From contig CM097885.1 of NCBI GenBank assembly GCA_044892525.1, positions 32,242,001-32,306,000 on the forward strand: a DNA stretch of 64,000 nucleotides, read 5' to 3'. The stretch comes from Schmidtea polychroa (Eukaryota). Position 1 is the stretch's first letter. The number at the start of each line of letters is the position of its first letter. A model generated the notes under the pieces. That model saw nothing but the letters and a program-made list of their open reading frames with translations. It ran no database searches and was not told where the DNA came from. Below, one piece after another: positions 22,074 through 35,862 of the stretch. Both the position numbers and the translations under genes were made by a program.

Positions 22074-22716
22074 TTACATGTATATAGTATGATATTCATT
22101 AATCAGTGTTGAACAGGCTTGACACTTGTGAACATTCTTCTCGTGACACTTAGAACAAACAATTACGTGACCACATGGTAAATACAAAACTGAAACTCGA
22201 TTTTCTTTACAAATTGAACAAGTTAAATATCTTTTCTTAACATCGTTCAGTTTTTTCGTTAGCTTATTTTCAATCAAATCGGCTTTTGCTATCCATTCAT
22301 AAATCAATCTACTATATCCCGATTTCAACCTTAAATACATACAACTCCAAAAGTATTCATTCAGTGAATCGTTGTTTACCGCTATTTTTTCTAAATGCAT
22401 TAAATAACTAGATAACTTTAAAATGGATTTATCATAATTAAATAAATCCCTCAAATATTCAATAGAGGAATGTTTGAAAACTTTTAAAATATTTATGATT
22501 TGCTTATCACTGTAAGTATCATGATTATTTATAAAATCTTCAACTGTGTTGTTAAAAAATTTCAATGAACGCTTATCTTCGGAATAGGTTGGACTTAATT
22601 TTTCCTTATTTCTAGTGGGACTTCCTTGCTATAAATGCCATATATAAAAAATATTGACAAAATAATAAAGTTACCAAATGTGTTACACATTCATCAGTTT
22701 TATTTGTAGAAATCAT
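22074..22716 (-). CDS. IAP-type C3HC4 RING finger protein, spliced (intron 22629-22674)
   Basis: CSIC...LYLPCGHVIVCSKC.....CQAC at the C-terminus. ATG at 22716 joins in frame across a 46-nt GT-AG intron. Confidence 0.8.
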
Positions 22717-23350
22717 TAGTAATAAATTTCTTAATAACTAAATTACTTTTGTTTTTACATTTATAAAAATTGTGATAGCCAATCAAAATAGAGCTTTCAA
22801 AATGTAGAAATTGTAACCATCAAATGTATAACAATAATAATAAGCATGACTAGTACCCTTGCAACCTGTTTAAAGTTTTATTATTATTATTATTATTATT
22901 ATTATTATTATTATTATTATTATTATTATTATTATTATTATTATTAATATTATTATTATTATTATTATTATTATTATTATTATTAATATTATTATTATTA
23001 TTATTATTATTATTATTATTATTATTATTATTATTATTATTATTATTATTATTATTATAGTCATTGATATAGCTGCATGCTCACTGCAGACTATATAAAA
23101 ATCACCATTAAATACTTATAAAATTATAATAAAACAACTAACCAAATACTTGAAAAAATTAAAAAAAATTCTGGTTACAAATTTTTATTCAATATGTATA
23201 TATATATAAATACAAGTTTTATTCAATATACAAGTTATAAATACAAGTTTTATTCAATATACAAGTTATAAATACAAGTTTTTTTATACAAGTTTTTGTA
23301 AATCAAAATAAAAGTTTCTTTACAATTTTCACAATTTTCAGTTGTCCTAT

Positions 23351-25431
23351 TTAAATTTGATCTTCGTCCCATTCGCTGTCGTCAAAACTGGGACTTGGAG
23401 CTGGACCGAATTCCTCATCATATTCGCTTAATTCATCAACTCCTAAATAGTGCCCAAATGCGTAACTTATGTTTTTGCCTAGCCACGCGCGCTTATCATC
23501 ATTATTACTTAGGGCAATTTTCGAATTTTTAAATGTAAAAAGTTGGTGATTTCTAGTACCTATTCTAGTCTGTGGTACAGAAATCACCTGATTTGAATTA
23601 AAGCAATTTAAATAGGACCTTCAAGTTCATAATATGGCAGGACAATTGTGACGGCAATTTCCTCCACTTTCCTTAAAAAATCCAAAATACAATTAGGTCC
23701 AAAAAAATAATAATAAAATTTAGTGTTTGTATAATTATTAATTAATAAAAGACCTGCTGATATGGGTAAATTTATTTGATGATATGTTTCATGTTCAGGT
23801 AAAACCGATTCAAAATCGGCATAAATTACGAAGGGAGGTGTAACGGTTTTTGCGTAATCTGTGAATAATAAATCCTTATTTTTAGGAAGTGTATACAAGG
23901 TTGTGCCAGTCTGATTTTTACAGCATAGAGCAACATGCTGATCGAAAGCATTCTTATATCTAAAGCCATTTAAACAATGTGGGCACCAGTTACACCTTAT
24001 TTGAACATTAACATTTTCATTTAAATGGCAATTCATTAATTTGTCCAAGTCTGTCACGGCCGTATAATGATATTTATCTTTATTACTCAAAAGTAATAAG
24101 TAAATCGGCCTACCATCTATAACCTTGGAGCGATGTACAATATTAAGATGAGGGTGGTGAGCTACATAATCCTCAGAAATATCACAATCAGAACTGGCTG
24201 GATTATAAGACAGAACGTTTATGCTTAAGTTTAAATCCGGATTTTTCCTTTCGAATTTGGGAATGTTACATAGCCTCATCGGGCAATCTGTGTCTTCGTC
24301 ATAATTTAATAGATGTAAAAATTCGTAATATTTGGCGGCTCTTTGGTGATTACGACCTATTTCTTCTCTTTTTAAAAGTGCAAGAATGCTATACAAGAAA
24401 CACTTATGGTCGTTGTTTTTAACATTAATTATTGCGTGTTTTAATTTTAATGCAGATGGGGTTTTTATATAACTATGTCCGGATAATCTACTAACGGGTG
24501 CGTATTTCGTTAAAATAAAATCTATCTCTAAAATATTCATTACTCGCCACCCGCTTCCTAAATAAGTGAATTGCTCAATCTTTTCATTTAATTTGCTCAC
24601 CCCCTCGTTTATAAAGTTTGCTGTAAAAACTTGCGCATTGTTTGAAAAATAATTATCCCGGATCTCCCCATCTTTTTCAAATTTAATTAAAATTGTAAAT
24701 TGAATTTTTACATTGCCCATCATTTCTATTTCCTCTATTAATCTTTCTTCAATTTTTGATGTTAGGGCTATTTTTACTAAGTTTTGATTTCTTATGTCAA
24801 ATTTTAATGTTTTTCGTGATCCGTTCAAATCGGATTCTACCATAGGTTCAAACAAAGAGCCGCCTATTTGACATATGTTGAAAGACGTTGACGCTACACA
24901 TTCATCATTGATGACTATCACTTCTTGTTGTGTAGAGGGTGCTTGTTGTGTAATGGGTGCGTGTTGTGTGAAAGATGTTGAAGCTACACATTCATCTTTG
25001 CTGATGACTATCACTTCAGGTCGCGATAATTTATTAGGAATATAATTTTTAATTAAACCAGCAGGTCTTTTAATAGAATCTTTTTTAATAATATTTATAG
25101 AATCTTTTTTAATAATAATAGTATCTTTTTTAATAGTATCTTTATAATCTGTTTTTTCTTTTATAATAGTTTTTTTAATATTTTTTAAATCTTTTTTAAT
25201 ATCTTTTTTAATAACATCTTTTTTAATAATATTTTTTTGTAAATTTTTTTGTAATTTTTTTTTATTTTTATTTATTTTTTTAAATAAAACATTTTTTGAA
25301 ATCGAAAATTGCCCTAAGTGACTATGATGTTTATTAAAAAATGTCATATATTTTATTTTTTCGCTAGTCACGCATTTGGGACATATAAAAAAGTTGAGTG
25401 AATTAAACTTTTTTCGGTAATATTTTCTCAT
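23351..25431 (-). pseudogene. pPolB of element B with a large internal deletion
   Basis: The N-terminal part (GSGW, INVKNNDHKCFLYSILA, YADFES) is joined near 23620 to the C-terminal KIALSNNDDKR; the polymerase core is missing. Confidence 0.88.
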
Positions 25432-26169
25432 TGTATCATGACATTGTTCGTTATGGCCAATTGATGATTGGCAATAATTTGGGTATAGTCTACCTGTTAA
25501 ATAATAAAATTAAAGTTTTAATTCAAATGAACTATATAACAAATGATGATAAATCCTTATAGAAAATAGGTTAATATATTCGAGAGAATATTAGAGAGAT
25601 TTTAGTAGATAGGTCAGATTATTATTATTATTATTATTATATGAATATGTTAAATATTAGAGAGACTATAGTAGACGAGTCTGATTATTATTATTATTAT
25701 TATTATTATTATTATTATTATTATTATTATTATTATTATTATTATATAAAAGAGAAGTAGCTGCATGCTTACTGCAAACTACTGTAGATGGGGTCTGATT
25801 ATTATTATTTATATATTATTATTATATAAAAGAGAAGTAGCTGCATGCTCACTGCAGACTACTATGTAGCTACGTGCTCACTGTAGACTACATTATTATT
25901 ATTATTATTATTATTATTATTATTATTATTATTATTATTATTATTATTATTATTATTATTATTATTATTATTAATATTATTATTATTATTATTATTATTA
26001 TTATTATTATTATTATTATTATTATTATTATTATTATTATTATTATTATTTTAACTATTGTAGATGCACATTGCAAACTACAAGGATTTATTTTATAACT
26101 ATAATTTTGTAATCACTTTTTTAAATATTTTCACAATAATTTCATTATATTTCAAAAACGTAGTATTTA

Positions 26170-26500
26170 CTTCATATAATCATTTTCATCATAAATCATA
26201 AATCATTTTCTTCATAAATTTCGTCATAATTTCATCATTTTCATCATAAATCCTTTTCATCATAATTTTGGGCATAAATCATTTTCTTCATAATTTTGGT
26301 TATAAATCATTTTCATCATAAATTCATAAATCATTTTCTTCTTAATTTGGGCATAAATCATTTTCTTCATAATTTTGAGCATAAATCATTTTCATCATAA
26401 TTTTCGTCATAAATCATAAATCATTTTCATCATTATTTTGGTCATAAATCATTTTCTTCATAAATCATTTTCTTCATAAATTTTCTTCATAAATTCGTCA
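26170..26500. repeat. Degenerate short tandem repeat (CATAAATCATTTTC-like)
   Basis: Repeated CATAAATCATTTTCTT/CATCATAA units. Confidence 0.75.
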
Positions 26501-34393: not shown

Positions 34394-34470
34394 ATGCAAA
34401 TGACATGCAAATTTAAACAAAGACATTCTATAATCTGATTGGTTGATAGGCATGAGTCAAAGGTATAAAA
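34394..34470 (+). promoter_or_regulatory. Putative Pol II promoter: two octamers, reverse CCAAT, AP-1 and TATA
   Basis: ATGCAAAT at 34394 and 34405, GATTGG, TGAGTCA at 34453 and TATAAAA at 34464; ORF starts at 34505. Confidence 0.6.
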
Positions 34471-34504
34471 ACCCTGTAACATTTCAATTTCATCATTATT
34501 CACT

Positions 34505-34915
34505 ATGACCAAGAAAATTTCATGCACCGAAAAACCTAAAGAAATGGTACAACCAGTTCAAATGTTCCATAACTACAAAATGTATTTTTTGAAAGAAGAA
34601 ATCAATATGAAATTGGTTGCACCAGTCAAGCTAATTCCAACTAAATTTCAATTCTTATCCGGCACGCTTTCAATGATTGATGTCAAAACAATTGATGATG
34701 TTTTTAAACGGATAGATTCGAATCTAACATGTAATCAACATGCATGGTTCAACAATAGATATGCAAGATTTTATGATGCTTTTGATGAAATCAGTTTCAA
34801 GGAAAATGAAAATTGGTATATAACTATTGCAATCCAGGGATATTAAGTTGATAATAATGATGTATATTCTCCTATTTGGAAAATTATGTCTGCTAGACTT
34901 TCACAAATATTTTAG
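34505..34915 (+). pseudogene. Hypothetical protein, probably interrupted by a TAA at 34844
   Basis: The frame continues as VDNNDVYSPIWKIMSARLSQIF after the stop; promoter-like module upstream. Confidence 0.45.
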
Positions 34916-35042
34916 TGTTATATTTAATAAATGTACTAGTCAGATTTGTTTTTTCTCTTTATTAATTGCAACATAAATGCAAATGACATGCAAATTTAAC
35001 AAAGAAAATCTATAAACAAACTTAAAATATAGCTTTAAAGTG

Positions 35043-35862
35043 ATGAAAATGACTGCAGAAAAAGGTTAACATGATTATTTAATTACAGAATTATTTATTA
35101 TTTAGAATTTTTAATCAACTTTATGTTGGAAAAGTTAGCAGAAATAGCTGGTGTGAAATTTGAGGACATATTATCTATTACAAATGCCTTAAATATCTGA
35201 TGGATAGTTGAGAGTCAAGATACAGGATTTGATGATGAGGAAGAAACTCAAGAAACTGATACTCAAGAAATTGATGAGGAAATCTATGAACCTATAGATG
35301 AACCTATAGAGGAACCTATAGAGGAACCTAAAGATGAACCTAAAGATAATATTACGTATGATTGTATTGCAAGTTTTATATAGTTTTGAAATTTAATTTT
35401 CTGTTGATTTATTTCCTTCGCATTTCTGGCGAGTTGATTCAGTACGCCCCATCCGCCATTGGCTTCAATCCATGGTTGATGGATATTTTATATATTCTCG
35501 ACAAACCAAAATGGTCAAAGCATCCAGGAAAAAGAATATCTCAAAGATTGGAGAATTTAGAAAACAGTTATGAACTATCATTTGCATATATACAAAATAT
35601 AAAAATTAAATTGATTGATCATATTGAGGTTTTCAATAACTCTATTGTTGAAAATAAAAAGAATATGAAAATTATTGATAAGAAGCATGATTATTTATTA
35701 AAAAAGATTGAATTATTATTAAGAGAAATTCAAACAATCAAAGGATCAATAGAATATCTGAAAATCAATTCAACGTTACCAATTTCAAACAATATTGCTG
35801 CGAATAGTAGTACATCAATATTTAGTTTACCTTTGTTAATTTTACATTATTTTATTGTTTAA
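35043..35862 (+). pseudogene. Spliced acidic/coiled-coil protein gene(s), degenerate
   Basis: ATG at 35043, intron 35065-35105, acidic EEPI repeats, in-frame TGA near 35198 and a downstream coiled-coil ORF to 35862. The link between the parts is uncertain. Confidence 0.45.

Follow-up and report, generated by a model that had tools for sequence, protein, structure and literature searches.

Candidate host-type introns in core and accessory genes of a Polinton family of Schmidtea polychroa

Do the short GT...AG segments that interrupt several genes of a Polinton/Maverick element in the genome of Schmidtea polychroa represent introns that the host removes, or insertions in copies that no longer function? 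We addressed this question in a stretch of 64,000 nucleotides (nt), referred to here as the window (GenBank assembly GCA_044892525.1, contig CM097885.1, positions 32,242,001 to 32,306,000 of the forward strand); all coordinates are those of the window. It contains three Polinton-type elements, A, B and C, and the segments reside in the middle one, element B. A first-pass annotation made from the letters alone had listed eight of them, in the integrase, the protease, a putative "SIM gene", a RING-finger gene and two further open reading frames (ORFs). All eight indeed begin with GT, end with AG, are T-rich and possess an AT content of 76-98%. They are given below together with the genes that carry them.

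20767-36680: Polinton/Maverick element B, 15,914 base pairs (bp); multi-copy family, copy in the window decayed
22074-22716, minus strand: RING-finger gene (PF13920, expectation value (E) 2e-9), two exons
22629-22674, minus strand: RING intron, 46 nt, phase 0
26605-27302, minus strand: "SIM gene", likely the leader exons of the polymerase (49, 63, ..., 87 and 201 nt), with acidic repeats
27207-27253, minus strand: leader intron, 47 nt, phase 1
26943-26993, minus strand: leader intron, 51 nt, phase 1
26806-26855, minus strand: leader intron, 50 nt, phase 1; 45-50 nt in other copies
27768-28152, minus strand: adenovirus-type cysteine protease (PF00770), ATG on a first coding exon of 5 nt, premature stop
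28111-28147, minus strand: protease intron, 37 nt, phase 2
30776-31869, minus strand: retroviral-type integrase with chromodomain (PF00665, PF00385), two exons, frame break near 31240
31401-31481, minus strand: integrase intron, 81 nt, phase 1, within the QTDLG|KEF motif
33771-33818, plus strand: intron of ORF 33719 (33719-34135), 48 nt, phase 1
35065-35105, plus strand: likely intron of ORF 35043, 41 nt, phase 1

Comparison of the segments across related families

A loose GT-AG rule picked four segments in the 8.9 kb of element A, five in the 10.3 kb of element C and eight in the 13.3 kb of element B. Since the pattern is thus common by chance in this DNA, the case rests on the comparison of relatives. 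The AT-rich host genome (781 Mb) provides these in abundance: all 40 scored matches to family B, from 2673 candidates, are 97-100% identical to it, and the sister families B2, B3, B5 and B6, found via a distant protease homologue, share about 70% nucleotide identity with B. From the positions, phases and lengths of the segments, from their presence or absence across families and from purifying selection on the exons, we infer that the GT-AG segments in the integrase, the protease, the polymerase leader and the three accessory genes are ordinary introns spliced by the host, with a probability of roughly 0.87. Position and phase are kept while interior and length vary (for ORF 35043, this was seen within family B only); between families the interiors have diverged past alignment, and the GT-AG ends are retained. 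The host-like donor, the U-rich 3' end and the host-like size suit U2-type spliceosomal introns. The proposal of host-style short introns in core and accessory genes is therefore borne out by conserved position and phase, by length changes blind to the reading frame and by size. Introns at different sites are unlike each other, save for leader introns duplicated along with their exons; a repeated introner family is not apparent, although no genome-wide search for introners was made.

The protease intron is the best supported of all. It is inserted after the ATG plus two bases, measures 37 nt in each of 29 other family B copies, and recurs at the same site and in the same phase in B2 (41 nt, 11 loci), B3 (40 nt, six loci), and B5 and B6 (37 nt). 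Upstream of the segment the protease frame is closed without an ATG, five codons away in B2 and two in B3, and likewise in B5 and B6; across the intron-bearing protease families and loci outside family B, this closure lies 2-18 codons upstream. Among 19 metagenomic proteases with a readable start, the three closest (L131, L132 and L134; 48-54% identical in protein) share the site, with segments of 39, 40 and 47 nt and a closed frame as in the sister families; the other 16 (25-39% identical) lack the segment and start at an ATG of their own. The trait is consequently not peculiar to family B, as had been supposed, since the protease intron is common to metagenomic relatives, and it is apparently the oldest of the set. 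No protease relatives were found in viral contigs. Homologous proteins agree with the spliced start that had been proposed: homologue P0124 begins with MNSVQI, exactly the register given by splicing. A reading of the segment as coding sequence, based on its open frame in B, was dropped on account of the closed, ATG-less B2 and B3 frames.

In the integrase, the segment splits a catalytic motif. Although the gene is divided, it yields a PF00665 match (E 4e-6) and has 1602 homologues, and QTDLG|KEF is contiguous in 120 of the 120 homologues listed, as expected if the segment is absent from the protein. Among metagenomic loci, the motif is contiguous in 78 of 80, and the other two have no motif match. 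In family B the segment is a GT-(TAT)n-AG microsatellite of 24-147 nt, with 78-147 nt in eight copies and 24-45 nt in 16; the 20 loci examined for short segments were chosen from the short tail. A gap-pattern search picked up one short-gap copy, but it needed exact flanks and missed other short copies, and hence does not point to a lower limit of length in B. Left unspliced, the B segment would insert an isoleucine run into the catalytic motif. At the same site B2 carries a frameshifting segment of 43 nt (two loci parsed), and B3 one of 42 nt with an in-frame TAA stop (six loci). In families B5 and B6 (30 of 30 loci) the integrase has no intron, and neither has that of a single locus with 80% identity to B. 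The ratio of nonsynonymous to synonymous substitutions (dN/dS) of the downstream exon is 0.04-0.11 between B, B2 and B3, with synonymous sites near saturation, and 0.08 and 0.25 within B; these low values indicate that the integrase gene stayed functional in the intron-bearing families. A further family member, known from the single locus L051 (G000:C1:51613312-51613351), carries a segment of 18 nt at this site, which is probably too short for splicing.

The accessory genes provide three further cases. The RING intron, 45-48 nt long with fixed ends, is present in 20 loci (three of them overlapping views of one tandem array) and in one further copy; exon 1 differs between copies by whole codons only, and the unspliced frame is shut by the TAG of the acceptor. 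The intron of ORF 33719 measures 47-51 nt in six other B copies, and the orthologue (B versus B2/B3, E 2e-6 to 5e-5) is interrupted by an intron at this very codon in B2 (45 nt) and B6 (48 nt) and uninterrupted in B3. In ORF 35043, the segment is 41 nt long with its ends kept in six of six other B copies, and the downstream frame (98-106 codons) has no upstream ATG unless it is spliced; this is the weakest case among the eight.

In a tree of 17 rows (L079 and L129 left out), the five families B, B2, B3, B5 and B6 form one group (SH-aLRT 93), and a single clade of intron-bearing integrases was neither shown nor rejected (p-AU 0.23). With such a tree, a single gain followed by losses, repeated gain and gene swapping are all compatible. 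Gain may have been stepwise, the patchy integrase and ORF 33719 introns being younger than that of the protease, and may have occurred at G|GT sites. The letters common to both integrase junctions (5+3 in B, 7+4 in B3 and 1+5 in B2) would allow birth by a short duplication at such a site.

The polymerase gene and its leader

The first-pass list of introns stood for its eight entries and overlooked two more, one within the "SIM gene" and a long one that separates it from the polymerase:

23608-25493, minus strand: DNA polymerase (pPolB), 5' part of the main exon; about 1.9 kb gone near 23613 compared with other copies
25494-26604, minus strand: likely intron between leader and polymerase, 1111 nt, phase 1, T|GTAAG donor, AG|GT acceptor
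27094-27143, minus strand: site of a leader intron in other copies, left boundary approximate

The polymerase ORF of the window is 47% identical over 421 amino acids (aa) to a 1374-aa ORF of family B3, which in turn bears the motifs YIDINNLYG, KLLNNSLYG and GDTDS and is 28% identical over 1148 aa (E 2e-95) to the element A polymerase (PF03175). A direct Pfam match was not obtained. Matches of the B3 polymerase to endonuclease VII/HNH remained below the cut-off (E 5e-4 in Pfam, 1e-3 in PHROG). This weak match lies at residues 630-677 of the B3 locus L092, and the element A polymerase aligns across the same stretch; an HNH endonuclease domain in the polymerase has been described for Polintons of the pPolB2 class (10.1101/2023.08.22.554363; this and the other sources are cited for the parts of them available to us).

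Although the "SIM gene" had been taken for a gene of its own, its exons are probably the spliced leader of the polymerase, as judged from a junction shared by four families. The same T|GTAAG ... AG|GT junction is present in B, B2, B3 and B6; the upstream exons of B2, B3 and B6 are unrelated and Asn-rich, yet they end in the same donor and acceptor. The acceptor precedes a conserved Cys/His motif whose first Cys would be supplied by the junction codon. One could instead suppose that the short introns are real but that the "SIM gene" is separate, with its own stop, and that translation of the polymerase begins from an internal ATG; a stop 13 codons beyond the donor in the last leader exon (ORF 26564-26851) and an in-frame ATG about 20 codons into the polymerase exon would suit such an arrangement. 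We consider it unlikely, given that the phase-1 donor is kept in four families after otherwise unrelated exons and that the Cys/His motif begins upstream of the internal ATG.

The structure of the leader is consistent with its exons being joined to the polymerase. Its exons carry acidic, putatively SIM-like repeats. At 27207-27253 the equivalent introns measure 42 and 47 nt in copies with exact flanks and 39-52 nt in a pattern scan, and the intron at 26806-26855 is part of a 138-nt tandem repeat of exon plus intron. Other copies possess an intron of about 43-50 nt near 27094-27143, where the copy in the window has no canonical acceptor. By a heuristic parse of related copies, 48 of 57 internal leader pieces have a length divisible by three, compared to 20 of 86 candidate introns. 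The length of the final leader exon is likewise divisible by three in all 11 related copies with the donor in view.

Two further features were observed near the polymerase genes of the sister families. Short GT-AG segments, likely in a 5' untranslated leader, occur at the approximate positions L081:1141-1184 (B3) and L080:1308-1358 (B2), and an opposite-strand ORF of 75 codons lies within the long polymerase intron of B2 (L080:368-595).

Host introns, reads and competing explanations

The size of the segments was compared with that of host introns. Candidate short introns in ten host myosin loci, identified by a heuristic, are mostly 42-65 nt long, AT-rich, start with GTAA, GTAT or GTTA and end with TAG; in myosin locus L096 there are seven segments of 47-55 nt, two of which were checked by eye against domain breaks. 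The element B introns correspond to the short end of this host short-intron class. The claim that elements A and C have none also held in a light check: each polymerase ORF possesses an ATG no more than 15 codons from where the frame opens, and the remaining ORFs are uninterrupted.

Several observations weigh against host splicing. We compared sequencing reads over 27710-31395, from runs that are presumed, by guess, to be RNA. Among the joints listed for this interval no spliced junction was present (62 more stand behind the joints of the deeper run); a contig of run X3 spans 27768-28144 gap-free and retains the protease segment, and run X1 has depth within that segment. Contigs of these runs cover the element evenly. 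Furthermore, in 27 of 29 other B copies the protease can be read without a break across the segment, back to an ATG 42 codons upstream, and the integrase segment of family B, as short as 24-30 nt in some copies, never shifts the frame or contains a stop. The intron-less integrases of B5, B6 and the locus 80% identical to B could act in trans. With regard to the leader, a full open chain was parsed in only two of six copies with the start motif, and a search for outside homologues of the N-terminus of the polymerase returned none.

The reads and the microsatellite bring to mind another explanation, namely that the segments are not spliced at all: they would be microsatellites or inactivating insertions, and the copies that bear them would be dead or non-autonomous and mobilized by helper families that lack introns. 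The slipping (TAT)n of the B integrase, the existence of helper candidates, the RNA-like contig that keeps the protease segment and the decay of the copy in the window are all in line with it. We nevertheless regard it as highly improbable: the protease segment is present in all five families, including B3, the least diverged (99.6% between copies), and even families with an intron-less integrase carry it; moreover, the exons are under purifying selection while the interiors have diverged with their GT-AG ends kept.

If the segments are host-spliced introns, the data do not speak for silencing as the motive for their presence. The first-pass annotation had suggested that micro-introns allow the element to escape silencing of intronless foreign transcripts; put more generally, the introns would be real and selected as a shield of transcripts against host silencing of intronless RNA. 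The intron sizes match those of the host, the human HUSH complex silences intronless mobile elements (PMC8770142), TASOR-like proteins are present in invertebrates (PMC10578480), one DUF3715 match above the cut-off exists in this genome, and the intron-bearing genes of a latent giant virus are part of a host-like latent program (10.64898/2026.10.09.758095). The longest coding stretches, however, are intron-free (more than 4 kb in the polymerase main exon and 1.2 kb in the capsid gene), and families whose integrase has no intron are young and exist in many copies; neither element A nor element C shows introns, and intron gain is patchy. In addition, Polintons are repressed by piRNA guides in a planarian (PMC8532177). 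Selection as a shield therefore appears doubtful.

Under the host-splicing explanation that we favor, the element, once integrated, would be transcribed by host RNA polymerase II, and its AT-rich introns of 37-51 nt would be removed by the major spliceosome in the same way as the short introns of host genes. The integrase would thereby regain its catalytic motif, the protease would obtain its start codon, and the repeat-rich leader exons would be joined to the polymerase via the long phase-1 intron. As an element copied as DNA has no reverse-transcription step that would purge introns, they may have been retained as near-neutral features.

Other genes of the window and comparison with known systems

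Several genes of element B appear to be free of introns:

28178-29400, minus strand: double jelly-roll major capsid protein, intron-free, in two pieces in the window copy
29394-30776, minus strand: 132-aa-type ORF and 340-aa-type ORF, no intron seen
32483-33112, minus strand: A32-type packaging ATPase (PF04665), no intron, in-frame stop in the window copy
33182-33646, plus strand: TBP-fold gene (PF00352, E 2e-15), no intron

The capsid gene in the window is 61-68% identical to a 408-aa single ORF of family B3, whose structure model (pLDDT 79.5) matches the capsid proteins of iridovirus, PBCV-1 and mavirus (E 5e-16 to 5e-14); judged by the predicted fold of this orthologue, the element B capsid gene is of the double jelly-roll type. 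A sequence search of the PDB gave no match for polymerase or capsid. From their position only, we infer a minor-capsid identity for the ORFs at 29394-30776; ORFs of the 340-aa type had no Pfam or PHROG match. Family B3 possesses two tandem paralogous 340-aa ORFs (L081:3552-5595), compared to one in B, B2, B5 and B6. The TBP-fold gene stands head to head with the ATPase gene and was found in the sister families and metagenomic relatives as well.

Element B has 5'-AG...CT-3' termini, is flanked on either side by the 6-bp target duplication GAATTG and contains inverted arms (21416-21805 and 35989-36378) with 98% identity. These ends and the duplication, together with polymerase, integrase, ATPase, protease and double jelly-roll capsid genes, are hallmarks of a Polinton. 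The copy in the window is defective, with stops in protease and ATPase, frame breaks in capsid and integrase, and the polymerase deletion.

Elsewhere in the window, the element C integrase (47293-48627) carries an N-terminal phospholipase A2-like domain (PF08398, E 7e-10), and near its ends element C has several repeats that resemble tRNAs or polymerase III boxes (about 39480-39550 and 49960-50720); ARAGORN detected no tRNA anywhere in the window. A BED zinc-finger ORF beside element A (12425-13588) possibly belongs to a separate DNA transposon. The genome also holds tandem arrays of Polinton fragments, one with protease-bearing units every 3.5-6.5 kb (G000:C2:102217168-102296774) and one with RING-gene units every 1.1 kb (C2:7859670-7866698).

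Our literature searches turned up no account of introns in the core genes of animal Polintons; descriptions may exist in Repbase entries, in supplements or in the founding paper of 2006. Word look-ups in the available parts of PMC8502044, PMC12220804, PMC6431247, PMC5718144, 10.1101/2023.08.22.554363, 10.64898/2026.10.13.758929 and 10.64898/2026.07.28.741278 returned nothing on such introns. Elements were counted as intact only if their ORFs were intronless in one study (PMC8097293), and prokaryotic gene calling was used in another because Polinton genes were taken as intron-free (PMC10120064). Surveys built on this assumption would score intron-bearing families as broken and mis-start their proteases and polymerases.

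On a wider scale, we see roughly even odds for a widespread animal polintovirus clade that gained core-gene introns stepwise (an old one behind the protease start, younger ones in the integrase motif and accessory genes), carried them between hosts and possesses a polymerase N-terminus that duplicates phase-1 exons. If so, a bare (TAT)n microsatellite would serve as an intron in the integrase, host splicing would gate integration, virion maturation and replication, and prokaryote-style gene calling would have been missing such genes. Five sister families, hundreds of near-identical copies and clean presence or absence at single sites make a compact system for the study of intron gain and loss. 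The same families allow one to ask whether introns alter host silencing of foreign DNA, an idea that the DUF3715 gene keeps testable.

With animal Polintons/Mavericks, element B shares terminal inverted repeats, a 6-bp duplication, pPolB, integrase, A32 ATPase, protease and a double jelly-roll capsid protein; it differs from those described by its candidate introns in integrase, protease and, likely, the polymerase leader. In the E2B polymerase/pTP mRNA of adenovirus, the start of a protein-primed polymerase likewise lies on an exon far upstream, across a long intron, with a leader of three residues, whereas the leader of element B comprises 55-200 codons, is repeat-rich and consists of tandemly duplicated phase-1 exons. 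Core genes of vertebrate Mavericks have been described as intronless (PMC8097293), as have those of nematode Mavericks, in which introns occur in host-derived cargo genes (10.1101/2022.07.12.499685). Ginger1 DNA transposons likewise possess an integrase-type transposase, with one to four GT-AG introns, but are single-gene cut-and-paste transposons without polymerase or capsid (PMC2836005). Punuivirus, a latent endogenous giant virus of Chlamydomonas, has host-like GT-AG introns in 61 of 506 genes, which were overlooked in the first annotation, proven by RNA and linked to latency (10.64898/2026.10.09.758095); in contrast to this nucleocytovirus, element B is a 16-kb Polinton and has an intron also in a likely late virion gene, the protease. 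Spliceosomal introns inside Polinton-like elements are also found in the maverick-polinton-like elements of dinoflagellates, where introner transposons of the host gave rise to them by copying, for the most part after integration (PMC11957031); unlike these, the element B introns occupy fixed sites common to diverged families and have interiors that can no longer be aligned.

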